Part shown: positions 10,648 to 51,889 of the stretch, piece after piece | Layout: the number at the start of each line of letters is the position of its first letter | How positions within the stretch are numbered: the stretch's first letter is position 1 | DNA from: Amoebophrya sp. A120 | Lineage: Eukaryota > Protista > Dinoflagellata | Length of the DNA stretch: 64,000 nt | Reading direction: 5' to 3' | NCBI GenBank assembly: GCA_905178155.1 | Contig: CAJINV010000009.1 | Span: forward strand, 310,001 to 374,000 | Notes under the pieces: model-generated | What the model was told of the DNA's origin: nothing | Seen by the model: only the letters and a program-made list of their open reading frames with translations | Database searches by the model: none | Program-made: the position numbers and the translations under genes

Positions 10648-13600
10648 ATGGAACAGTACCAACTTTTTCCCAAGGGAGCCAGCAAAGCGAAAAGTACGGC
10701 TTCCTCGAGCAAGAAGACCGTAGCCCCGGACGGGGGGCCCGCGAAGGCTGCGCCAGGCTTGCCGGCCATGTTCGACAAACTGGGGCGTACTCCTGACCGG
10801 GGCCAGCAGGCCGCAGCAAGCCAGCAAGACAGTGACGCGGAAACCTTTAACCCGACAGTCCAAAACGCGGATCATCTGAACCAAGAGTCCGTTTGGCTCG
10901 ATCTGGATGTCAACGCCGACAACAAGCTCGACCGGGAGGAGCTGCAGCCGGGCGTTGAGACCAACGACCTGTGCCTCTCGCGGGAGATGCTGGTGGAACG
11001 GCTGCAGCTGGAGAACGACCTGTTTGTGACGTTGGTCAAAATGCTGAACTTTTTCATCTACTTTCTCTTCTTCCTGGTTGCCATCTACATCTTCTACCCC
11101 GGTGCGCATGTCGCCAAAGTGCACGAGTTTCTCTTGGACCACTTCGACATCGGGCAGGAGTCGCTCCGTGAAAACGTCGTATCAATCGCGGACCTGTACG
11201 GCTTCATGTCTGACTTCGACAAGCAGAATCGGGCGCTGCGGCCGACCGACAAAACGTACTTGTGCGACCCCCGGTTCCTCAACCTTCCCCTGGGGTTGAC
11301 CCAGTCGGGCAAGCGACACGCGGAACACTTGGCGGAGCTCGAGGCGCACCTGCGGAGACTGAAGCAGGTAGAACGTGAATTGGACCAGTATAGCAAGGCG
11401 AGAAACCTTGTTCGAGATGATATTGACGAAGCAGCTGCGGGCAAAAGTGCTGACAATTATGCAGAAAATGGTGTAAATTGAGCGGATTATGATTACGAAG
11501 CGAAGAAGCAGGAGCACAGTCGTATTCTGCAGCTGTCCGAGGACTTTATCGAGGAGTACTTTGGCGACTCGCCCTGGGTGACGAACGTGGACAAAATGAA
11601 CAGTCTGACCAACGTGTATTCCCGCCCAAACACGCTGGGCAAGGACCTGCATGGGCACGATTGGAAGCTGTACGACTGCGCGATTCCGACCTTTCCGGAG
11701 ATCAGGGATTTTGTGGGCACCCTGCACAAGCGCATGAAGGCCGCGGGCGTGGACGCGAACGTGCGGTCGAGCTACACACCGTTACCAGAGAACAGCTACG
11801 AGCGGAATGGTCCGTCAGGCGGCGCTCATCGCCGGAATTTGAACGCCATTGACCCGCAGACGGGGGAACTCCTGCGCACGGAAGCGCAACTCACGGAAAA
11901 GGAGAAGTCGGCGAGCAGCTACCAACTGCGGAAGCTGTTGCGCAAAAACGGCTTGAATGTGAAGAAAAGTCTCAGAATTTTGAGCGGAAATCAAGAGGGC
12001 GACGCCAGTAACTCTCTGACGCTCGACGAGATCGCGCGCATGCCTGAGGCGCAGTTACGCAAACGGATCCTCGAAACCGGCGAAGAGGTCAGGGACAAGA
12101 GCAGCAGAAGTGCAGCAGGACCCACGATTAGTGCAAACGAAGAGGGCCGCGAGGACTACCTTGACGACAGAACCCCAGACAGACGGACAAAAACCGGATT
12201 GCTAGCGAACATGCACGAATTCGTGTTCGGTTCGTCCTCATCGAGGACGTCGAAACGCAGAACACAGCAAAGCACGTCCGCAACATCTGCGTCAAAGCAT
12301 TTCCGTCGCGACCTGTTCGAGGCTGTGACAAACAGTCCGGAAATGAAGAGAAAGAAACTAGAGCTCGTTTCTGAACATGATTCTCTGTGGCCAACAAAAC
12401 ACTCAGCAGCAGGAGCATCCATTGCTTCTTACTTCCAGGCACTGATGCCGTTCAAGAATCAGGAAGATGAAAATCTTTCCTGGGTCGATTCTACCGCACT
12501 GTATGAGGAAGAGCACAACTTGTTTTCTGATGACGAGGGTGACAAGGCGCTCCGGAAACTGTTGAATCAGCCGAAGAACAAGAACCCAGCGGAATCGCGT
12601 GCAGAAGAGATCAAGCGCTTGGTGGCGGAGAATGACAGATTGTACGACGAGAAACGAACACAAGCTAAGCAACACGCTTCAACATCATCACGACCTTCTA
12701 CGCATGCGGAAAACTCCGTCGGGGGCCGACAATTAAGCAACTCCGACCGCGCGTGGTGGCACTACGACGAGACCGGTGCGAAGAAGGCGACGTCGACTTT
12801 ATCTGCAGTCGAGTCTCGTCGCCACCAAAAAGCCGCCCGCCTGTCAGAAGAACGCGGAAAGCGCGACGAAAAACTACAGTACTTGAACAGCATGAAAACA
12901 AAGAAGGAAGAGAAGAAAAACGGGGAAAAATCTTCTGCGAAACGGGAACTGGCGCCGAAATCCGAAGACGGCAGCTACAACATTCCCTCGCTAGCGTATC
13001 GGAACCCTGGCTCTTACGCGTTTGGCACGATTAAGAAGAAAAGCTGCAGCCGGGCACTGCGCGTCAGGAGGCGGTCATTGGAAGAGATGGAGCGATTCGA
13101 AGCGGATGAAAGTAAGTAGTACTTTCGGAACTTTTCAGGTAGCGGACGATGAAAAGCAAAATCCCTTCGCGGACACTGCAGGCTCCGCTTCCGAGGGCGA
13201 AGCAATCGCCTTGCAGCGACGAAAAGCCAACGGCTTGCTGGACGAGGAGAGCGACCCATTCAGTGACGAGAACGAAGATGCCCTCGTCCGTCAGCTCGCG
13301 ACGGAGACGTGCTGCGTCTGCACGACGGTGCACCGGGAACTGTTGGAAGACGGAACTGCGCCCGGACGGCAGCTCGCCGCGTCTTCCACCACCGCCACAT
13401 GTGCCTCGGACCCGCCAGCGACGGTGCGGCTGCGGTTGCGGAAACTGGCCGTCGCAGCCTCGACCACGACCAACACCACGGTCACGACGGCAGAGCCACT
13501 CACCATCGAGGAAATCGAACATTTGGTCTTTCCGAAGTACAGCCAGTGTCCGATGGGCACGGGCAACAGCACGTCCTCGCGGATGCTGCAGGAGGTCGAG

Positions 13601-16600
13601 GGGAACGGGATGAAGCAGGCGGATTTGGAGTTTCAACGGGCGGTTTTCTTGAATCTCATCGACCTGGATGTTGTGAGTGCGGACGAAGATCATGACCAGG
13701 GTACTAAAAATGAAGACTCAAAAAATGCCGAGCACAGGATTTTGTTCCCGGAACACCAGGCAATTGTCTCTGCTGCTGCTGCTGCTGGCGGCGGTTCTGT
13801 TGTGGAAGAGAGTACAACTCCTTCGACTGGTCCCTCCGGGGAATTACTACTTGCAAGCAGAAGTCTTGCAGTTGCTGCATCGTCCAGCGCGACTGCCACC
13901 ACCACGGCGCCGCCCGACCGTTGCTGCTGCTGCCCAGGTTTTACTCCGATGACGGGAGGGCCGAGTGGTGGTGGTGGTGCCGCGCACCGTCGAACTGCGG
14001 TGAATACCGATGATGAAGATCCTGCAGCAGATGAAAGATCTCCTGGCGAGCTGATCCACTTCGGAACCGAGGGGAAGTACAGGGTTGAAACGCGGTTTCT
14101 CGCCGCTACGGCGGATGCGAAAACCAATCGCTGCGAGTGCGGGTCCGAACTGAAACGGCACATCGCCTGGACCGCGCCCTTGCACGAGTACCGAGTCTAC
14201 TTGAATGATACGTTCAACGACCCGATGATGCCGCACATGGGGTACTACCAGCCCAAACACAAGTTTCCCTACATGCAATCCGCGATTTTGGACACCCTGA
14301 TTTACCAAACGCGGTACCAGCTCATGCTGTTTCCGCCCGCGGTATCAAATGTAAAAATGTCTGGGTCTGGAAGAGTCCGAGACTTGTCATGCTGTTTTTG
14401 CATGACACAGAATGTCTGTCATGGAAGCCCTAGCATCACAGATTTTTAGAGGCCTTCCTGATGCCTATTCCGCATGACAAATGCCCTCCCCGCGTAGCAC
14501 AAACTGGGCTCCTCTTGCTGGTCATGCAATACAGACTTTTTTAGAGTCCAAAGTTAGCATCACAAGTTCCAACCTTCCAGACCCAGACATATTTGCAATG
14601 CATACGCGGCCTACAGCAGCAAGATTTCCGACCCGATGGCCTACAACCTGGACATGGACTTTATGGCGTTCTCAAATGTTACATTCTCAACTGTTACATA
14701 AATTTGCAATGCAAGAACGGCAAAAGTGAAAGGAGGAAGACTGCGCCTTTTGCATTACAGATCTGGCACAGATTTAGATGCTGTTGTGTTTAGCCCTTCG
14801 GATATTTGTCATGCGAAGCAGCTTAATCGTGGCGATCTTGGTGGCAAATTTCAGTTGAGAATGTAACAATTGAGAACGCCATGGACTTCACGCACGGCGG
14901 GTTCGGCCAGGACGCCCCGAAGGTCGTCGATTTGTACGACTGCGTGGACCGCGACCACCACGAAAGCTCCAGCTACGACGAACGGATCGATACGGAGGGC
15001 TACGACTTCCACGGGGAGAAGGTGTACGCGCGGTTTGCCAACACCGGCGGAACGCATTCCGGCCGCAACATCGAGGCCGACTGGTGGCGGATCGGGTGGG
15101 TGGATTTGCAGACGCACAAGGTAACGGTGTCCACCATGGTGTACACCCAGATGGCGGAGATCTTCACGAGTGTCGCCGTGGAATTTGAAATAGACGAAGC
15201 GGGGAACGTGATTGGGCTGACGCGGTTGATGTCCTACGTCGACTTGGACGACTACGGGACCAAGGGGTGGTTCATCTTCAGCAACGTCATGGTGATTGTT
15301 TTCGTCTCCATGGGCGTGGTGCACAGCGTGTATCTGATCACGTGCGGCACAAAGATGACGGTGTCGCTTTGGTACGAGCTGGCCAGTCGGGCGTTCATGT
15401 TGTTCTTCAACCTGTGGCTGCTCATCGGATTTCTGGGTATGTAAGAAATCAGAGATTTTTGTGTGGCTCTTCAAAGGTTCTTAGTACTTGATACTTTCAC
15501 CATTTTGCTGCACTTTGATCTGCTTGTAGAAAAACTAACATTAGGACAGCGATGCAAAATATGCAAAGTTGTCCTTGTTGGCCCGAAAAAAGCAAAATAA
15601 AAATTTGAAAAATCAGGTCTGAAGCCGATGAAGGAGGAATACAACGATTTGATGACGACTTTTTTCACCCTCCACGACTTTTCCTACAAGGGTTTGATTG
15701 GTTCGATCCAGCACTTTTTGGTCGTGAAGGACCACGTGTACGAGGAAAACGACTTGATTTTTCTGTATCGCAAAGTTGCGTTTGCGGTCACGTTGGTCTC
15801 TTTCCTGCAGATGATCCAGTACCTCAACGTCCACCCCCGCGTGGCGACCTTGACGTCCACCATTTTGAAGTCCATCGACGAGATGGCGCATTTTTTCATC
15901 GTGTTCGCGATCCTGTTATAGCGGCGGCAAAAGCTTATTTTTGCGAAAATTAAAAAAAATATTGGGTGGCTTTATCGTGGGCCTCGCAGCCCAGCCGAAT
16001 CATCACGCTTCTGGACTCAGGACGGCGTAAGACCCACGCCAGCGCAGCGCTTACCAAGTTTGCCCTGCCGTGCTGCCGCAAAGTCAAACACATCACACCA
16101 CCGCAGAACCCCTTTCAGAAGGCGCGAGAGGTCGCGTCAGCTTCAACGCTCGCGCACGCCAGGGCGGGCATCGTGGGCAGGGAGCCGGGTCCGTCGTTGA
16201 CCCCTAGACGGGCCAATCCTGCCAGGTCTGCGCCGCTCCAAATTTGGGCGGGGCAGGCGGCGGCCCGGCAGGCGCGGCCGAATCTGGCCAAGCCAAAGGC
16301 ACGGCGTGATATGGAATGGGCGAGCGCCTTGCGCCTCACCAGATGCCCCGGGGCCATGCTCCTGCGCCCCGGTTAGGCGGCATCATCGGGCGCAATGCCC
16401 ATCCCTGATTGCCCGGCGAGGTGCCGCAAAACCCCTCGGCTGCCGCCCACGACCCCTGCTCGGGCGACCGCAATTCCCCAATTGCGCGACGCCCACCCTG
16501 TTCAAGCAGCCCCATTTCTGCAAAGCGGGCAAAAGCGTGGCTCCATCCCAGCCAAGGCGCCTGCGGTTTGGTTACACCTTCCAAGCCACCCCCTAGCGCG

Positions 16601-19600
16601 CCTCCGCCAATTCGCGGGATTCCTTGCAAGAACTACCCGGCGGCATTTCGGATATCAATTTCGCGGAAAACAACCGCCCGGCGACACTGCCAGCACGCTT
16701 GGAGGCTAGAGCACAAGCGCCGCAGCCCTTGGCAGCACGGCGGGGCAACCGGGCCCCCCTTTTTGCAGGTGGGGAACTGATCAGGCGGCCCGCGCAAGGG
16801 GGGCCCGACCGCGGCGCGCCGTGCTCTAGCGGCCCCAACACGGGCGGACGGCAACCCGAAAAGCCCTCTCCGCTGACCGCCGTGCCTTGAGCCGATTTCC
16901 TGAAAAACAAACGGCGGAAAGCATTGGGCCTGGCGCCGCCGCCCCACTGTTTTCCCGGCCCGAGCCGAAGGCCACAGCGCTTGCGCAGTAGGTAAGGCGC
17001 AGAGGCGCGCGGCGCCCGGGCCCCTTTTAGAGGATGCCGAAAACACCAGGACCGCCACGGCCGCCTTACCCTTTCGGCGCGCCGCGCTGCCAACATAGCG
17101 AAGCCGGCCAGCCGGCAATGCAGGGCGGGCGCGGATCAATTTCCCGGGGAAAACACTGCCGGCATGCTGTGGGCCGTGCTTTTTGTCGCTGCTTTTCTTC
17201 GGCCAGACCGCGGGGCGCATGGCGCCAAAACCAGAAGCCAGCGCGCGTGGGGCGCCCGGATCGCCGGCGCTCTTGTTTGCCGGGGCAATCGGGGCCACGC
17301 TTCCGGGCAGCTGCGGAACCCCGCGGCCGTTGCGGAGTGCACGTGGGGCGCGTGCTGCGTGGCCGCCCTTGCCGCCGCTGCTTTCCCACTCTGGGGTCTC
17401 CTCGGCCCCCCCGGACGGGGGGGCCCGGATAGGGTCCTCAAAAGTGGCCCTAAGCAAGAGCGATCCCGCATGCTATGGACCCACTTTGGGGGGGTGCCTC
17501 TTTAGCCTCTCCCGGAAGGTGTTTCCAGTTGCCCGGCCCGCATTCCCGTTGGGAAGCCTCCCAGCCGAAGCTCCGTCGTAGCGACAGGCTTGCCACTTGG
17601 GTTCGGGCTGTTCGGCGCGCGCCGTTCCACGAAAACCTTGTCCATTTAAGGCGGCCAGCTTCCGGACTGTCGGAAGAGAGGGCCCAACAAGTTCGGCTCA
17701 GGTTGCTCCCCCTCCTATTGCTGCCGGCGCATGCTCGGGTGGGGGAGGGGTTTTCCCCCGTTTGGCGCGACCGGGCCCCCGGCGCTTCCCTGGGTTTCCG
17801 CGGGCGGGCGGGCTAGGGACACGACTCGGAGATAACACGCAGAAGGGGTGGGCGGCCGTTTCTTCGCGAGCAGGCGCCGCCTTCCTTGGCCGTGGGTGCG
17901 CATCTGCGTCGCCCTATCCTTGGCCCTCTTTGAAGGTGCCCGACTGGGCGCAGTCGGTCGGACTGGTCGAGCGGGTAGTGTTCGGCCACGTGCTTTGTCC
18001 CGATCCGAGTACGGCGCGGCAAAAAGGAAAGGGACAGGGCTGGCGGCGCTTTTGGCGGTCAATGAGGCCCTCCTGGCCTGGCTTACTCTGCGAACGCCCA
18101 CTGCCCTTGCGAGGCATAACGCACGCAGGAGAGGCAGCCCGCTTGGTGCCGTTTCATGCCCCCCAAAAAAAGGCAAAGGCCCCGCGCTTTGGGGGTGCGC
18201 CGGGCGGCGGGCATTCGGTCGGGCCAATCGCTCGCCACGCCCCCTCCAGGTGCCGGGGCGGGAGTGAAACCTGCGCAGCGACCAAGAGTTTCCGCCCCTC
18301 CAGCCCGGAGTTTGGTTGCGGTACTCCGGGAGCAGGCGCTCTGCCTCCCAGGTTTCAAAACGGGCGCGGCTTTTGGCCGCCGCGCGTTTCCGGGGCTTTT
18401 TTCATGTTCTCCAGCAAGTGCGGTGACCCTTTCGCGGCCCCTCTGAAACCCCGGCGCGCCAGGGATCGCCCCTCCAAGGGCCAGCCGCCAGAGCCGGTAG
18501 AAAAGCTGTAAGAGCCGCCGGGCGACGCTTCAGAAAGGCCTGCGGGAGGCGGAAAGCGCAAAACCCTAGCAGCCCGGGGCGCGTTCTTATTTTCTCGTGG
18601 CCATTGCTCGAGGCCTTTTCACAAGCCTGGCAAGGGAATGTTTCTCCTCGCCACATCTCCCCCGCCCATCCTGCTGCCCGGCGCGCTGCCAAAACACATA
18701 TGCGAGGCCACTGGCAAGCATGCCACCAGGGCCCGCGTGCCGGCGGCTCCACTACTATCGGCGCAGGTCTCGGCGGGGCATCGAGCCAGAGCCCGGGCCC
18801 GCGAGTGCAGTGCACTTCGTAAGGCCCAACCCCCCGGCCCTATCATTTCTGTCAACCAGGCGCCTGACCATCTTTTTCTCCGATCAATTCCAACCGCGGC
18901 TGCACAGGCGTCGCAGCCGAGCATGCTCGACACACGTTGCGATGGTAGTGCTCTTCGCGGCCAGTATCTATGACACCCAATGTTTTTTTTAATTTTCCAA
19001 AAAATAAGCTTTTGCCGCCACTATACCTGTTATGGATTGCAAAAATGTCTGGGTCTGGAAACTTGTAATGCTGCGTTGGGAATAATGAATGCTCTGTAAT
19101 GCATAGCCAAGCATGAGAAATATCTGTGCTGCTTTGTGTTGCATTTTTCGCATGACAGCCTGGGTTTTTGCATGACAGGCAAAAGTGCTTCTTCTTGGAC
19201 ACGCATCACAAACTTTTTGGTCATGCCAGGCAAGCACGACAAATCTCGCAATCTTCCAGACCCAGACACTTTTGCAATTCATACCTGTTCGTGGTGATGG
19301 CGTTCATCGGGCATTGGCAGTTCGCATCGATGCTGCCCGCGGACTTTGGGACCTTCGGCCGCGCCGTGGAGTGGCAGTTTCGGATGATCATCGGCGACTT
19401 CCCCTTCGACGGGTGGATCGAGTTGGACACCACGCAGCAGTTGATGTACTGGCTGTACCTGATATCCACAGTAAATTTCCCGTACACGACGTACAAATGC
19501 AGTCTCTGCACGACAAAACTTGCCTTCAATCCTAGTCTAGCATGACGAATTGGACACTGCAAGTTAGCGAAATTTGTCATGCATTTTGTACATGTACGAG

Positions 19601-20688
19601 AAATTTACATTGCATACCTGATTCTGTTCGCGCTCATCATGTTCCTGACCATGATGAACTTCTTCCTTGCGATCATCGTGGACGCTTTTGTGGAGGTGAA
19701 GCAGGACATCCACGACCAGAAGACGGAAAACTCCTTTCCCTTCGACTGCATGGACATGTTCAAGGACTGCTCCAAGTACTACACCACCCGGGGGTACCCG
19801 AACAGCCGCGAGGTGCTCGACGCCCTGAGCGAGGCGGACGAGCAGGACGAGATCGCGCGGCGCATTTACACGAAGGAGAAGAAAAAACACGATCCGGATT
19901 TTCACTACCCGGTCACCGCAAAGGACTTGGCTTCGTACAACCTGCGATCCATCGAAACGGAGGCGCAAGCGGTGGAGTTTCTAGTGCGGTACGGAATAAA
20001 AACGCCGGAAATCGTGTTTAGAACGAAGGTAGTATTTGAGTGGGAGCTTTTTTTTTTCAGGTTGTGAGATCGATAGATACTTATTGCTTCTTTGCACTTG
20101 TTTCACTTTTCAAGTATGGGAATTTGCAGCGGGACGTAGAACTAGAACCATTTTATCTTGCTCGCTATACAATTACAAAATATCTAGCGTGCGTTTTGAA
20201 CAAAACAAAATCAGGGTCTCATGGTATTCAAGAAGCTCTCTGAAATGGCGAAGCGCGACGCAGGAACGCTCTCCCCAGAGGCCCTTCAGGCCATCTACGA
20301 CGCCACGGACCAACGCGGGCAGCGCAAGCAGACCGGTGGCCGCCAGGTTTCTTCCAACTGGCGAAAAGTCATGGACCGTGTGGGCGGTGCGGACTTGCGA
20401 AGCTTGGCAGCAGCTGTATGAGATTGCACAACTCCCCCTCCCCCTCAATTGTATGGTATGAGCAGCAATTCAGACACCAGCTCAAATGGAGCCTGCGCAT
20501 GACAAACCTGCACACGGATTGTAGTTCTGTTTGTGGCTCCAAGATTTGTCATGCTAACTGTGCTTACAGACAAGATGTGGATTTGGGTTTTTGCATCACA
20601 AATGAGGGGGAGGGGGAGTTGTGCACTGTCATAAGCTGCAGCGGCCGGGGGCTCCTCCTCGCGAGCATATGAATACCAGGACGCCTAG
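10648..20688 (+). CDS. Polycystin-2/TRPP-like cation channel with a very large extracellular loop, interrupted by canonical introns and six TAT..ATA elements
   Basis: S1 is LNFFIYFLFFLVAIYIFY. Removing the elements gives a contiguous S4-S6 region: LQMIQYLNVHPRVATLTSTILKSIDEMAHFFIVFAIL|FVVMAFIGHWQF...FGTFGRAVEWQFRMIIGDFPFD...WLYL|ILFALIMFLTMMNFFLAIIVDAF. Putative GT-AG introns are 11368-11511, 13112-13181 (or -13142), 15437-15616 and 20029-20214. Stop is TAG at 20686-20688. Confidence 0.82.
14343..14604. mobile_element. Introner E1 (262 bp), 5-bp TSD CGCGG
   Basis: Ends are TATCAAATGTAAAAATGTCTGGGTCTGGAAG and CTTCCAGACCCAGACATATTTGCAATGCATA (TIR). CGCGG occurs at 14338-14342 and 14605-14609. 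Removal restores FPPA|AYSSK. Confidence 0.92.
14662..14883. mobile_element. Introner E2 (222 bp), 5-bp TSD GACTT
   Basis: TIR TATGGCGTTCTCAAATGTTACATTCTCAACTG / CAGTTGAGAATGTAACAATTGAGAACGCCATG. GACTT occurs at 14657-14661 and 14884-14888. Removal restores LDMDF|THGG. Confidence 0.9.
15917..19025. mobile_element. 3.1-kb TIR DNA transposon (TAT..ATA ends, 5-bp TSD CCTGT) inserted in a coding exon
   Basis: 52-bp TIRs at 15917-15968 and 18974-19025 (48/52 identical by eye). CCTGT occurs at 15912-15916 and 19026-19030. The interior is GC-rich and decayed. Confidence 0.92.
16150..17860 (-). pseudogene. Decayed hAT-superfamily transposase remnant (boundaries approximate)
   Basis: Minus-strand motifs occur in hAT order across frameshifts and a stop: PFCVL/SES (about 17830, DES-like); MDKVFVE...GKPVA/YDGAS (DGAS at 17566-17577); FRERLKRHPPKVGP*HAGSLLLRATFEDPI (CxxH-like region, about 17470); PRALASGFGAMRPAVWP (TRWxS-like, about 17240); SISRRAFGL...ADLAGLARLGVNDGP (ERxFS...LMRIxxNGP dimerisation-like, about 16190-16310). 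Confidence 0.6.
19031..19283. mobile_element. Introner E3 (253 bp), same family as E1 but in inverted orientation, TSD CCTGT
   Basis: TIR TATGGATTGCAAAAATGTCTGGGTCTGGAA / TTCCAGACCCAGACACTTTTGCAATTCATA. CCTGT occurs at 19026-19030 and 19284-19288. Confidence 0.92.
19463..19616. mobile_element. Introner E4 (154 bp), TSD CCTGA
   Basis: TIR TATCCACAGTAAATTTCCCGTACA / TGTACGAGAAATTTACATTGCATA. CCTGA occurs at 19458-19462 and 19617-19621. Removal restores WLYL|ILFAL (channel S6). Confidence 0.9.
20417..20633. mobile_element. Introner E5 (217 bp), TSD AGCTG
   Basis: TIR TATGAGATTGCACAACTCCCCCTCCCCCTCA / TGAGGGGGAGGGGGAGTTGTGCACTGTCATA. AGCTG occurs at 20412-20416 and 20634-20638. Confidence 0.92.
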
Positions 20689-39997: not shown

Positions 39998-40999
39998 ATG
40001 AATCGAAATGCTCACCGTGACCGGCCAGCAGCCCGGGAGCGTAGCCGTAGCGTGCAGAAGCGACGGCCGTCTGCGGGTGGTCCGCAACAGGACATGTTTA
40101 AGAACGGCGACCGCACACTGCGCATCCGCAATCTGTCCCGCAACGTGGAGGAGCCGCACTTGCGCGAAATTTTCAAAGCCTACGGAACCGTAAAAAGGGC
40201 ACTGATCGGGCGCGACCAGAAATGCAACGTCAATCTCGGGTACGGTCTCGTCGAGATGTATGGAAGCGTCAGGTTTGAAATCGACAAAGTTGAAATGATT
40301 TATCATGCATAAAATGGATGCCAGTTGCAACCCAGGTTGCAAGTGGCGCATGACAAATTTGGTTGGAGCCGAAATCCAGTTTGTCATGCTGCTTCGGCAC
40401 AGAAGATAGCTTTTGTCATGCTACTTTAGCAGCTCTGTCCCAAACCCTAAACAGGCTCACAATCGGCCTCACTTGCCATCCCTGCAACACAGGCACTTCA
40501 TGCTTTGCATTTTATGCATGACAAACCATTTCAACTTTGACGATTTCAATCCTGACACATCCATAAGATGGCAACCTTCAAGGAGGCGGAGCAGGCGGCG
40601 GATTGTTTTCACGGCGGCTGGATCGATGGTAAGGAGGTGGCCGTCACCATTGCAGATCCGGACGCCGGGCGTGCCGGGACCGACAGCGACAAAAATCAGG
40701 TAGCGTCGAAAAAGGACGTCACCAACAAGCCAGGGCGCGCCGCAGGGGCCTCGACAAGAGGTGGGGGCACGACTTCTACGGCGAAAAATACTAAAGCCGC
40801 CGCCAAGCAAGCAGCAGCCCGGGGCAAGAAGGTGCAGCGGAAGCAAGTCGTGGAGTCTTCCTCAAGTAGCGAGTCAGACAGCGGCAACAGTTCCTCGTCC
40901 AGCGGAGAAGCAAATTCCTCCTCCTCAGAAGAGGAGGAGGAAAACTCATCGTCCTCGGAGTCAGAAGAGTCAGTGCGACCCAGAAAGAAAAGGGCTTGA
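39998..40999 (+). CDS. RNPS1/SR45-like RRM protein, interrupted by introner E6
   Basis: Reconstructed RRM: LRIRNLSRNVEEPHLREIFKAYGTVK...LGYGLVEM|ATFKEAEQAADCFHGGWIDGKEVAVTIA, which resembles the RNPS1 RNVTKDHIMEIF...GGQIDGQEI pattern. Ser-rich tail. Confidence 0.8.
40259..40565. mobile_element. Introner E6 (307 bp), TSD AGATG
   Basis: TIR of about 58 bp: TATGGAAGCGTCAGGTTTGAAATCGACAAAGTTGAAATG... / ...CATTTCAACTTTGACGATTTCAATCCTGACACATCCATA. AGATG occurs at 40254-40258 and 40566-40570. Confidence 0.93.
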
Positions 41000-47526: not shown

Positions 47527-50500
47527 ATGGACTACTACACAGCTGATGCACAAGAATTTGGGAACAAAACTATAAAAGAAGAAAATATCGTTATTGAAAT
47601 TGATGATATCAGAGAGAAGAAACCGAGGCGCATCTTCCGGGTCCTGCAGTTCCTTTTGGTTACGTATACTAGTATTCGTGTACGACCTAGTTTGCTCGTT
47701 GTCTGCTGCGGCTGCGTCGCATTTTTTGGTGCTTTCTTGCCTGCGGCGTCTGCGGCCGGTGGGGAGGAAGTACGAGAATCCTTCGCGAAGGATGAAGGTC
47801 TTGTCGAGCGCAACCAGGTGGCGGTCGAGGACGAAAACGCGGAAAAATCCTTCGGAGATGAGGCCAACAGCGCCGGTCAGCATTTTCGTCCTCTTGAGAG
47901 AGCAAGCGCTCGTCCGAAAGACGAGAGTGAAAGACGAGCGAGCAAAACGCACCTCCTTACATTCGCCTCGCATGGAGTGTATAGGCAGGTTCAAGACATC
48001 GCGGAAAGAGAGGCAACCGCTGCCGGTTTCGCTTCCCACGTTCGCTGGAAAGCCTCTATGACTTGCTCAACCGTTACAATCTCCAACGTTACAATAAAAT
48101 CTGGAAGTTGTGTTGCAGGATGAGCACGACAGACTCGCACAGCGTTCTACCTTTTGCAATACAAATTTCGCCAGATTGTAGTGGGGTTTGGGTCTCCGGA
48201 ACTTGTCATGCGCAATCCTATGAGAGTTGGCTAGATCATGCACTCTTGCATCACAGATTTCCATATTCTATTGCAACGCTTTAGATTGTAACACCTGAGC
48301 GGGTTATAGCCTCGCAGTTGGCGTTCTGGAATGATCGGGAAAGAGCGGCGCGCCTCTTGTACGTGTACGCCCAGCATGATGTTGAGCCAGATGCAGATCG
48401 TGATCAACTAGACGAGAATAAACATCAGCCAGATGATCGCCACGGAAACCTTCATAATACGACCCAGGAGCAGGAGGATGCCCCTCACAAGAACCGAAAC
48501 ATCGAGCCTGTCACTGTTGGGGCTTTCGCAGAAACAAACAGCCTTGGGAGCCCAGAGGGGACTCCTGCATCCACGACTACGTCCACCTCGGAATTGGAAT
48601 TGCTCAGCGCACCTGGTACTAAGGCTGCGAGTCGTTGGTGGGCCCAGACGAGGGGGCCTCTTTTTCAGAAAATTTTCGAGGCTTTCGGCACAACCTACCC
48701 CTATTTGAATCCAGCCTATTTCGCAAAGGCCGTCACTCTGATTGAGACCCTCTTCGATGTCTCTGAACAGCGGTCACCGACGTCCTGTGCCAGAAGTGAG
48801 GGGAACCAACTGGACTCGTCTACCAAGACGACGGAAAAAGCCAAAGCATTGGCAACCAGCATCCCTAGTGCTACAACCGATGGAGATATGAATGGGCGTA
48901 CTGATGAAGAGACGCAGCCTACAACGCCGGCGACTATTGTTCAGCCGGAAACTACTACACCAGGGCCAGAGTTGAGGACGTCGATTGCAGCTGCGCAAGA
49001 GTGCGAATCGCCGCCGAGGATTGGCTGGGGTGACTACGTTCTCGTGACAGACCCAACGAAGCATTTGGTGGATGAGACTGAGTCTGGAAATCTGGTCGAG
49101 GCTGTGGTCGAGGAAGAGGTATCTGCGACATATCCTCCTAGCAGCAAGACTGTGATTGAGGCGCCATCTAGCAATCCTACAGATACAGGGCAGCATGAAC
49201 CTCCGAGACGAGAAGGAGGCAATCAGGGAGATCTGTTGCTCACAGACTGGCGTCTGTTGAACACCGCCGGGGTCTCGTTTTTGCGCGATTTGAATGCAAC
49301 AGATCTTGAGACGCTGCAAACCCTGGCGGCGCAAAATGAGCGGCTTCCTCTCATTCCCGGGGTGCGGTTGCCGCCCAGTGTACGGTGGGAGTATTCCACG
49401 GAGCGGTTCCGCACACCATGCACCGACTGGCTCCTAAAGAGCCCCCACGTCGCGTACGTCTTTCGCCGTTACCTGGTCTTGCTCCTGCGCCGAGCGTGGC
49501 GTAGCGGCCCGGCACCGCTCTGGCTGGAGCGCTCCAAGATCATGGAAGGCCATCAAGCAAGTGCGGTGGAGAATAGCGGGGAGCTCAGGCAGTTGCCCCG
49601 TGCTGCAGCCGCGCCCCCTGCGAATTCTGAGAAAAGCAACGGCAGCAGTGCTGCTGCATTTTCCACCGAAAGCGAAGACAGCACAGACGCACCGCCCGCG
49701 GCTGGAGATGCATCTTCAACATGGTGGACGTCAACCTCAGAGGCCCCGCGTTCCGACAGTAAACGCGTGCACGGGGACGAACAAGAAGATATGAACAAAC
49801 GCGATGTGTACCGGGTGAAACACTTCCCGGACTCGGCCTACAGTGATTTTCTGTCGTTCGTTGACTTGCCTGCTTTGTGGCACAACGTAACTGGAGGACA
49901 GCGACAAGCTGCCGGATCCGGATCAGCATCGGAGGCTAACGAGATATCACAGCCGAAAAATGAAGACCGGTGGTGCTTTGCTCACACACGACTGGTTTTG
50001 GTTCACAAAGCGCTGCGTTTGTTCTTTTCGGCGCGCCGCGGTCAAAATGTAGGTGAGCCTAAAGAAACTCGGAACCGAGTAGAGCCGCAGTCGCTCCCCC
50101 ACGAAATCACGCCACTGATTTCTCCGATTGACGCTTTCACGACGGGGTGCGTTGAGGTGGAGCTTCTCGTCAAACAAGAAGCTAGGTACATTGGGCCGGC
50201 TATATGCGGCCTTTTTGCAGCAGGATCTGATGCAGCCTGCACGCCGGCCGGACATGTGAATGAACAAGGGAGCGACTCGCAAGAACTCCGGGCGCAACAG
50301 TTTCACGACCGATGCTTCTGGCACTGGCAGACCTATTCCCCCATGCACCAAAACACATGGCTGTTTCTGCGGAAAACGGTAGGTAATTTCCACTTTCTCC
50401 GGCTGTGGTTGCGGCTGCTGCACGACACGCGGCTTCTATCCAGTTTTCCCTTTGTGGACCAGAGTCCTCTGGGCCACCTGATTCGGGCTCTGAACCTCCG

Positions 50501-51889
50501 CACTTTTGCCGTCCCGTCGTTGTACTACCCACGGCTAGGCACGTGTCCTGTCTACGACCTGACGGAAAACTATCCAGAAAAAACGACCCATGCCCACCTA
50601 ATTTGTCATGTGAACCATGCACCAGAGTGAGTCCTGTCCAAAGGCTGTCGCTTGTCATACAAAAAATAGACCACTGGGAGCGAGTGGGATAGGGTCTGTT
50701 TCTTTGAATAAACACGAGAAGACGGCAATGCTCCGCGAACGCTTTCTTGAATTCGACAGCAAAACTCTCGGGAACGAAGACGGGCAGCAGATCGAGCCAC
50801 TGCACACTGACACTGCACAAACGCACACATCACGAGGAACCGCTGCAGATAAGGGCACGGCAACACATGACGCTGATCATGCGCTTGATGAAACAAGCCA
50901 CCCTGTTGAACAAGACACGCGACGGCCACAGGAGTCGGCGGAGGTCCTGAAGCACGGGAGGTCGTATGCGGTACTAGATCAGGTGATGCCAGTATCGCCC
51001 TACGGCGTTCCAGATTTTTTCCCCGTGAACAAACGGTACAAAACGCCGTTCTGTGCTCCCAATTCCAACCGTATCGTGCAGCAGATGCACGGCCTGGGAA
51101 ATATCCTGTACAAAAGTATCGCACTACGTACTCGTACTATTTGCAGTCATGTGCTACAGATCTACCTTTCTATCTGATCTAGCATATAAGTACAAATAGA
51201 TTGCATTTTTGTCTTTATTGTGGTGCTTCATCGTAAAATTTGTCATCGTCATTGTGATTTCTACTAGAGCGAGGTAACAAATGACCCGTTAACTCGCGCC
51301 CGCGAGTTAGCCGTCCGCCCGGCCGGCCGGACGGTTAACTCGCGGTTAGAAATGTAGACAAATCGAAAGGTAGCACAAATTTGAATCGAAGTGCTCGCCA
51401 ATCCTTGGCGAGCCCTTCGGGGTAGATTTGCACCACAATTCGATTTGTCTACACTTCTAACCGCGAGTTAACCGTCCGGCCGGCCGGGCGGCCGGCTAAC
51501 TCGCGGGTGCGAGTTAACGGGTCATTTGTTACCTCGCTCCTAGTAGTACGATACTTTTGCAATGCATAGATGATGCGGTGAAGCAACTCGGGAAGCTCAC
51601 AGCGCAGTTGCGGCTTTCACGTTTGCGTTTGCTCCGGGAGAAAGCCGAACAGGTCGAAGCAGAGACTGACCACCAGCACCTTCCCGCCGATGTTGTTCGG
51701 CCGGTAGAAAAGAAGGACACAGGTGTAGGTGAGTCTCCTTCGCCGGGGGACTTCGGTAGCAGATCGGAGGAGGAAGAAAAGGCTGTTGGGGCTTGGATGC
51801 TTCTGCCGTCAGAGTCGTCCCTGCAAGACTTCACGCCCTTGACTATCGGGACCTTTCTGCATGATCTGTTTCTCGAGACCGCGTTCTAA
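47527..51889 (+). CDS. Large type-II-membrane-like hypothetical protein (exons about 47527-48056, 48314-50626, 50670-51115, 51570-51889)
   Basis: N-terminal hydrophobic segment. Removing introner E7 joins RWKAS|QLAFWND. Putative GT-AG introns 50627-50669 and 51116-51569 join in frame. Confidence 0.65.
48057..48308. mobile_element. Introner E7 (252 bp), TSD GCCTC
   Basis: Imperfect TIR TATGACTTGCTCAACCGTTACAATCT / AGATTGTAACACCTGAGCGGGTTATA. GCCTC occurs at 48052-48056 and 48309-48313. Frame is restored on removal. Confidence 0.9.
51102..51568. mobile_element. Aged introner-like element E8 (TSD not conserved) containing a MITE
   Basis: Left end TATcctgtaCAAAAGTATCGcACTAC compares with the reverse complement of the right end TATgcattgCAAAAGTATCGtACTAC. 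Flanks GGAAA and GATGA do not match, but removing element plus 5 nt stays in frame. Confidence 0.6.
51267..51539. mobile_element. Fold-back MITE (273 bp), 3-bp TSD CTA
   Basis: Near-perfect hairpin: GAGCGAGGTAACAAATGACCCGTTAACTCGC... / ...GCGAGTTAACGGGTCATTTGTTACCTCGCTC, with arms of about 100 bp or more. CTA occurs at 51264-51266 and 51540-51542. Confidence 0.88.

Follow-up and report, generated by a model that had tools for sequence, protein, structure and literature searches.

An introner-bearing gene of Amoebophrya sp. A120, related copies in both orientations within coding sequence, and possible modes of their recognition

Non-canonical introns, among them introner elements with terminal inverted repeats (TIRs) and direct repeats of 3-5 nt, have been described in Amoebophrya (Farhat et al. 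2021, PMC7789003). According to the text of that report, the introner families of strain A120 begin with TAT, seven looser bases and three or more A, have a mean length of ~240 nt, are predicted to form a hairpin and contain no transposase. It further reports that U1 is missing, that U2, U4, U6 and most spliceosomal proteins are present, and that the removal of introns of this type without U1 or GT-AG ends is unexplained (PMC7789003). Here we consider a 64,000-nt stretch of A120 DNA (contig CAJINV010000009.1, positions 310,001 to 374,000; the window, to which all coordinates below refer), in which a polycystin-like cation channel gene is interrupted by several TIR elements, gene and elements being on the + strand. 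Two of these, E1 (14343..14604) and E3 (19031..19283), had been taken in a sequence-only reading of the window as copies of one introner family in opposite orientations within one gene, the removal of which would depend on symmetric features and not on linear splice signals.

In Polarella glacialis and Aureococcus, introners are transposons with TIRs and target-site duplications (TSDs; 5 nt in one class) that act as introns in either orientation, the GT/GC/GA and AG splice sites coming from the element or from the TSD; these TSDs are constrained (GHNN, GHN6, AGGH, NAGGH), and the classes concerned are biased to one orientation (Roy et al., 10.1101/2020.10.14.339549). Euglenid nonconventional introns have no GT-AG, but have paired ends and TSD-like repeats, and likely originate from miniature inverted-repeat transposable elements (MITEs). 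Their splice sites lie at a fixed base count from the paired motif, and they require CAG/CTG motifs and a purine at the start of the acceptor exon (PMC12501133, PMC11282704). The non-canonical introns of Fritillaria borealis have MITE-like TIRs and TSDs and are removed despite non-canonical ends, mostly AG-AC or AG-AT with a preferred TAC target, an adapted U2 spliceosome being credited with their removal (PMC11282704).

The intron class considered here is therefore already known, and so are bidirectional introners in other organisms. E1 and E3 resemble the A120 introners, as the published text describes them, in their removal from RNA, non-GT-AG ends, TAT-type TIR, 5-bp repeats and membership of a repeated family (19,720 DNA records match the stretch), and the left ends of both fit the pattern of TAT, seven looser bases and three or more A. 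They differ in having TIRs of ~30 nt with imperfect arms beyond, as against the 8-20 nt given in that report, the text of which also contains neither the subfamily core inversion nor the 3.1-kb tandem element found here (PMC7789003). Unlike the euglenid introns, the elements end in TAT/ATA and show no flanking base preference, neither the CAG/CTG motifs nor the acceptor purine being found. The AG-AC/AG-AT introns of Fritillaria borealis, with their TAC target, are likewise unlike these TAT/ATA elements, MITE-like TIRs and TSDs being common to both. The text of PMC7789003, figures aside, gives no introner orientation relative to the host (the word 'strand' is absent and 'orientation' concerns gene blocks), and the literature searched, its scope being main texts rather than figures and bioRxiv supplements, contained no orientation or TSD analysis of Amoebophrya introners.

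Orientation in coding sequence and removal from RNA

It is well supported that copies of one introner subfamily occupy coding sequence in both orientations about equally and are removed either way. A TIR scan of one assembly (10 of 64 parts) gave at least 183 loci (L001-L183) holding at least 230 TIR elements, with at least 137 of the E1/E3 family and at least 136 under 330 nt; the family counts below are drawn from these. In viral contigs the same TIR pattern gave no match. The copies listed form 13 clusters, none with any internal inconsistency of orientation, and E1 falls in cluster 3 (39 members listed) and E3 in cluster 10 (6 members listed). The host strand was called by a codon model trained on the window, which on leave-one-out with 200-nt flanks called 198 of 255 cases, none wrongly at the margin used. 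Coding signal was present on both sides of 76 of the 136 listed copies, 32 of them core-sense and 44 core-antisense (p=0.21; 95% confidence interval 0.31-0.54). A looser cut-off gave 40:55 (p=0.15) and a stricter one 14:26 (p=0.08), a steady, non-significant antisense lean, and a split by arm instead of core gave 38:34. By subfamily, the sense:antisense counts were 9:12 (cluster 3), 7:6 (cluster 6), 5:6 (cluster 11) and 1:4 (cluster 10). Two other TIR families were also found both ways (11:5 and 3:3), and scores were too weak to place Eb, E4 and E5, further elements of the host gene, in one shared orientation frame. Host strands were concordant in 12 of the 13 contigs having two or more calls. 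Hence the strong orientation bias that, by the sequence-only reading itself, would have spoken against strand-independent removal is not seen among the listed copies.

If retained, 70 of these 76 copies would introduce in-frame stops and 3 a frameshift, with 3 leaving the frame open; as 73 of the 76 break the frame when kept, removal must work both ways. Pfam matches in own-strand frames (opposite-strand frames, as control, being left out) occurred in 11 of 100 flank segments and covered four sense and four antisense copies. Two of the profiles are split by core-antisense copies with in-frame stops, namely Rpb1_5 of the RNA polymerase large subunit (profile positions 1-24/26-66) and the chaperonin profile Cpn60_TCP1 (249-341/344-437).

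In the host gene of the window E1 and E3 leave the RNA precisely, each element being lost together with one TSD. This is observed in a 9442-nt contig of run X3 (taken as RNA, which is a guess) with a depth of 53.6, which matches six listed exon pieces with zero mismatches and lacks 494, 180, 3531, 186 and 222 nt relative to the DNA. These are exactly the losses predicted for E1 and Eb (267 + 227 = 494), a canonical GT-AG intron (180 nt; 15437..15616), E2 and E3 (3372) with E4 (159), a second GT-AG intron (186 nt; 20029-20214) and E5 (222); the short exon pieces that follow E1 and E3 are unlisted, and their junctions are derived from the exact offset arithmetic. Retention of E1 would bring in-frame stops, and a stop-free frame of ~900 codons is obtained once the elements, each with one TSD, and one GT-AG intron are taken out. 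E1 is a 262-bp TAT…ATA introner of subfamily 3 (group I), core-sense with arm A at its 5' end, flanked by the TSD CGCGG at 14338..14342 and 14605-14609. E3, a 253-bp TAT…ATA introner of subfamily 10 (group II), is core-sense with arm A at its 3' end, and has the TSD CCTGT at 19284-19288 on its right. On its left the same TSD (19026..19030) is common to E3 and to E2 (15917..19025), a GC-rich 3109-bp TAT…ATA element with a 52-bp TIR, no exon lying between the two introns. E2 and E3 thus exit as a single intron of 3.4 kb or as two that abut with zero exon between them; the outer ends of the combined unit pair at only 11 of 30 positions, as against 27 of 30 for E2's own ends. Since the two share one TSD and leave together, E3 is a poor witness for its own orientation.

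That the joined form does not reflect splicing at all, but DNA excision, template switching by reverse transcriptase or ribosome hopping between repeated codons, has some points in its favor. A hairpin with a direct repeat is a classic setting for skipping by reverse transcriptase, every 5-nt repeat holds one whole in-frame codon, and the RNA nature of X3 is a guess. We nevertheless regard it as very improbable, because the contigs listed for run X1, which behaves as DNA, span the element-exon junctions and the E2 interior at single-copy depth (38-44, like the flanks). In X3 the depth is 0 in four E2 bins as against 53.6 on exons, and although such a coverage hole alone is no proof, the RNA contig lacks the E2 interior and both GT-AG introns too. 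Moreover, the 73 frame-breaking copies include those in the RNA polymerase subunit and chaperonin genes.

The raw RNA runs X9 and X10 gave no reads on the host-gene exons. In X9, 138 raw reads match only E1-type ends (14343-14374 and 14554-14594) and then continue into the interior of another subfamily, so that at least one copy of the family is retained in some transcript.

Two regularities of placement were also observed. Of the 76 coding copies, 42 have a TSD beginning at the third codon position, with 17 and 17 at the other positions, an excess that is unexpected in that removal should be phase-neutral. Among 95 gaps between neighbors in the listed loci none is shorter than 34 nt and 32 are between 34 and 74 nt; this floor possibly reflects target exclusion or a lower limit of exon size, and the gap of 5 nt between E2 and E3 is an exception.

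Opposed arms, parallel cores and a locus with both orientations

The end matches on which the opposite orientation of E1 and E3 had been based are present in the sequence: positions 1-81 of E1 match the reverse complement of the right end of E3 with 77.8% identity (62.6 bits, as against 38-46 bits for same-strand end matches), and the two elements are joined by a 66-nt inverted pair (I2). The alignment of E1 to reverse-complemented E3 that had been suggested as a check recovers these ends, but the whole elements tie (global scores 149 same-strand vs 153 reverse-complement), and so do the interiors once the 31-nt TIRs are cut off (53 vs 53; against 1000 dinucleotide shuffles z is ~8 for both). 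Clusters 3 and 10 likewise tie at 28/28. The tie conceals two opposed signals, with E1 windows starting at ~31-70 and 201-211 favoring opposite orientation, and those starting at ~81-181 favoring the same orientation (30.6 vs 13.2 for the window at 111). By segment, the arms score 39 vs 15 for opposite and the cores 7 vs -12 for same orientation. In profile searches against clusters 9, 10 and 11, the left arm of cluster 3 hits the reverse strand in 40 of 40 cases, whereas for its core 38 of 40 are forward-strand matches. The core of E3 itself gives a weak signal with cluster 3 (6.2 vs 5.2), and the link passes through cluster 11, the core of which scores 47.3 forward with E3 and 18.8 vs 11.5 with E1. 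The consensus of cluster 10 scores 158 in the same and 174 in the reversed orientation against cluster 3, and 206 when its arms are swapped round a fixed core; the swap also lifts clusters 11 and 9 to 221 and 214 (best unswapped 185 and 178), and gives no rise in the cluster 7 controls.

By these comparisons E1 and E3 are members of one TIR family but of different subfamilies, opposite by their arms and parallel by their cores, and the difference between them is likely to be an old inversion of a core of ~100-130 nt between long imperfect inverted arms. Thus, of the proposal that one family lies in opposite orientations within this gene, the common TIR family and the opposed arms hold, whereas the core and the subfamily do not agree with it. 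Likewise, removal in both orientations is borne out by the other copies (32 vs 44 of 76) and not by E1 and E3, which are no clean opposite pair. A family-wide spectral orientation had assigned E1 and E3 to one side (93 vs 28 votes for E3); it masked the conflict between arm and core and was hence replaced. The case calls for caution, in that ends alone cannot give the orientation of near-palindromic elements.

Both orientations in one open reading frame are found at locus L118, with two cluster-11 copies in opposite orientation (score -18 as they lie, 122 with one reversed). Contigs from the RNA runs X3, X4 and X5, all of one sample, omit both copies exactly, 264 nt each; the raw RNA run X9 had no reads on the L118 exons. 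The same locus contains, at 552-668, a fourth TAT…ATA element, the two TSDs of which differ at one base.

Signals at the ends and rival modes of recognition

The TSDs are free in sequence. Their bases follow the flanking background at four of the five positions (n=130), the highest base frequency being 0.37, with a mild excess of A at position 3 (p=0.015, n=130). GT-AG boundaries can be read in 10 of 130 elements (6 on the antisense strand, 6.3 with shuffled TSDs), i.e. at chance level, and GT/GC/GA-AG in 18 of 130 as against 16.6 with shuffled TSDs and 8 on the antisense strand; for E1 (CGCGG) and E3 (CCTGT) no register gives an AG 3' end. In their free TSDs, chance-level GT-AG and lack of a significant orientation bias these elements thus differ from the introners of Polarella and Aureococcus, the constrained sites of which are not found here. 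As an element and five arbitrary bases leave exactly, at least one junction must lack a fixed sequence and be set relative to the element end. The orientation balance and the free TSD together imply recognition by features present on both strands, with at least one junction that cannot be read from sequence, and they render the splicing mechanism of these introns more open to test.

The features present on both strands are the following. Read along the host strand, the 5' ends of the elements do not differ from the 3' ends in base profile. Either strand is predicted to form a terminal stem, with pairs 9-16 at p>0.5 in 96% of 76 copies, and folding energies do not differ between sense and antisense (-108.5 vs -108.2, p=0.67). 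In 121 of 137 family elements and 70 of 93 other elements listed, both strands carry a GCATGAC-type motif, at a density of 14-16 per kb in elements vs 0.8 per kb in coding sequence. Only TAT/ATA and the pairing of the ends are common to all removed elements, including E2, the TIR sequence being different.

On balance we lean, if only slightly, to removal by way of a terminal stem closed by TAT/ATA, with at least one cut placed by distance and no use of splice-site sequence. A transposase acting on the TIRs would insert the element by cut-and-paste or copy-in, in random orientation; pre-mRNA transcribed from either strand would then fold into the same terminal stem, and one or both junctions would be measured from the element end, the 5 nt being arbitrary exon sequence. 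The predicted catalyst is most likely the organism's own modified spliceosome, reported to lack U1. A stronger form of this proposal is that a UAU/AUA-closed stem of any sequence suffices as a molecular ruler without donor, branch or acceptor sequence, in a pathway distinct from both spliceosomes that spans 0.15 to 3.1 kb, excises five arbitrary bases and handles a zero-length exon; we consider this possible but doubtful. Were it true, any such transposon would be a scarless intron at whatever site and whichever way round it inserts; this would account for the invasion, and a scarless intron independent of site would make a useful tool.

Several observations weigh against recognition by the stem. 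Only 75% of copies have a predicted pairing of the terminal triplet, which in E4 is weak (0.15). On the transcribed strand G·U and A·C occur about equally in the first 16 terminal pairs (70 vs 76, n=130), and with no G·U excess selection on RNA pairing is not shown. The 5'-most T is never replaced, as against 7 of 128 replacements of the 3'-most A (p=0.016, in a post hoc test of one of three positions), and this asymmetry may reflect a 5' signal of the linear kind. For the E1/E3 family the RNA evidence from the same strain is limited to core-sense copies, and the RNA of L118 differs from the DNA at 22 of ~805 exon bases (~2.7%), pointing to a related strain in which empty alleles are possible. 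With 11 of the 15 differences listed there synonymous, and without a pair at 97% identity among 138 copies, the sequences favor a live gene with old insertions, but this does not settle the issue of strain. The variants of the 3'-most A are five G and two C, Eb being a removed element of the window that ends in ATG, and the asymmetry fits wobble pairing and a linear 5' signal alike; a single-end polarity test within the family was not significant (1/71 vs 3/78).

The further claim that removal in both orientations excludes linear splice signals does not follow, because a TIR element presents a TAT start, an ATA end and a GCATGAC-type motif on either strand. A modified spliceosome might accordingly read a 5' UAU…, a 3' …AUA and an internal GCAUGAC-type site, bound by a protein or branch-like, all of them mirrored on both strands of a near-palindrome, with the RNA pairing a by-product of the TIRs. 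The missing G·U bias, the invariant 5' T beside the variable 3' A (0 vs 7/128) and the internal motif, which is on both strands of most elements and enriched over coding sequence, would all fit such mirrored signals, as would the Polarella introners, which are used in either orientation with ordinary splice sites (10.1101/2020.10.14.339549). However, three bases per end common across families are too few alone to specify an intron, one junction still falls in arbitrary sequence, and five of the seven 3' variants are G, a base still able to pair with the 5' U. Further, E2 is removed without the motif, though possibly riding on E3, and the motif is equally explicable as a subterminal transposase site. 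We therefore hold this alternative to be unlikely, though it deserves serious weight.

A route independent of the spliceosome, in which an endonuclease and an RNA ligase cut at the hairpin base and release a full-length linear or circular RNA, would account for the lack of GT/AG use, for the reported lack of U1 (PMC7789003) and for the handling of a 3.1-kb element and of abutting introns, and has a parallel in the euglenid nonconventional introns, the ends of which pair and which are released as circles (PMC11282704, PMC12501133). Against this, the GT-AG introns of the same gene are spliced, most spliceosomal proteins and U2, U4 and U6 are reported present (PMC7789003), and no candidate enzyme was identified in this analysis. 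Hence we regard this route as distinctly improbable.

The host gene, E2 and the other elements of the window

The polycystin-like cation channel gene was followed over 12995..20028 (+), the transcript contig extending beyond both sides of this part. Single exons gave Pfam matches on two of five (PF20519, E=0.0017; PF08016, E=0.0005), which are weak and both below the curated cut-off. Apart from E1, E2 and E3 it contains Eb (14662..14883, +; 222 bp, TSD GACTT), E4 (19463..19616, +; 154 bp, TSD CCTGA) and E5 (20417..20633, +; 217 bp, TSD AGCTG), introners of other TIR families. Two further TAT…ATA elements, from other families and likewise flanked by 5-bp TSDs, lie at 40259-40565 and 48057-48308. 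Ten candidate elements were listed in the window; two, in which only 12 of 20 bases pair, were discarded, and 5-bp TSDs flank eight. The ~30-bp TIR is common to E1 and E3, the remaining elements having unrelated TIRs.

E2 is ~66% GC and has no GCATGAC motif. Its candidacy as the autonomous element for the MITEs is unsupported by Pfam, the best match over its 29 frames being E=0.097 with no transposase family among them. A DNA depth of 135-285 in the E2 region, as against 42, suggests a few extra copies, and a 95%-identical copy of E2 is present in the RNA run.

Both GT-AG introns (15437..15616 and 20029-20214, +) have an A-rich 3' tract (…AAAATCAG) in place of a polypyrimidine tract. A TAT…ATA element at 51102-51568, with unmatched flanking 5-mers, encloses a nested 273-bp hairpin with arms at 51267-51401 and 51405-51539 that are 90% complementary. 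All long frames of the window with a coding-like base pattern are on the + strand, an arrangement expected of co-oriented gene blocks.

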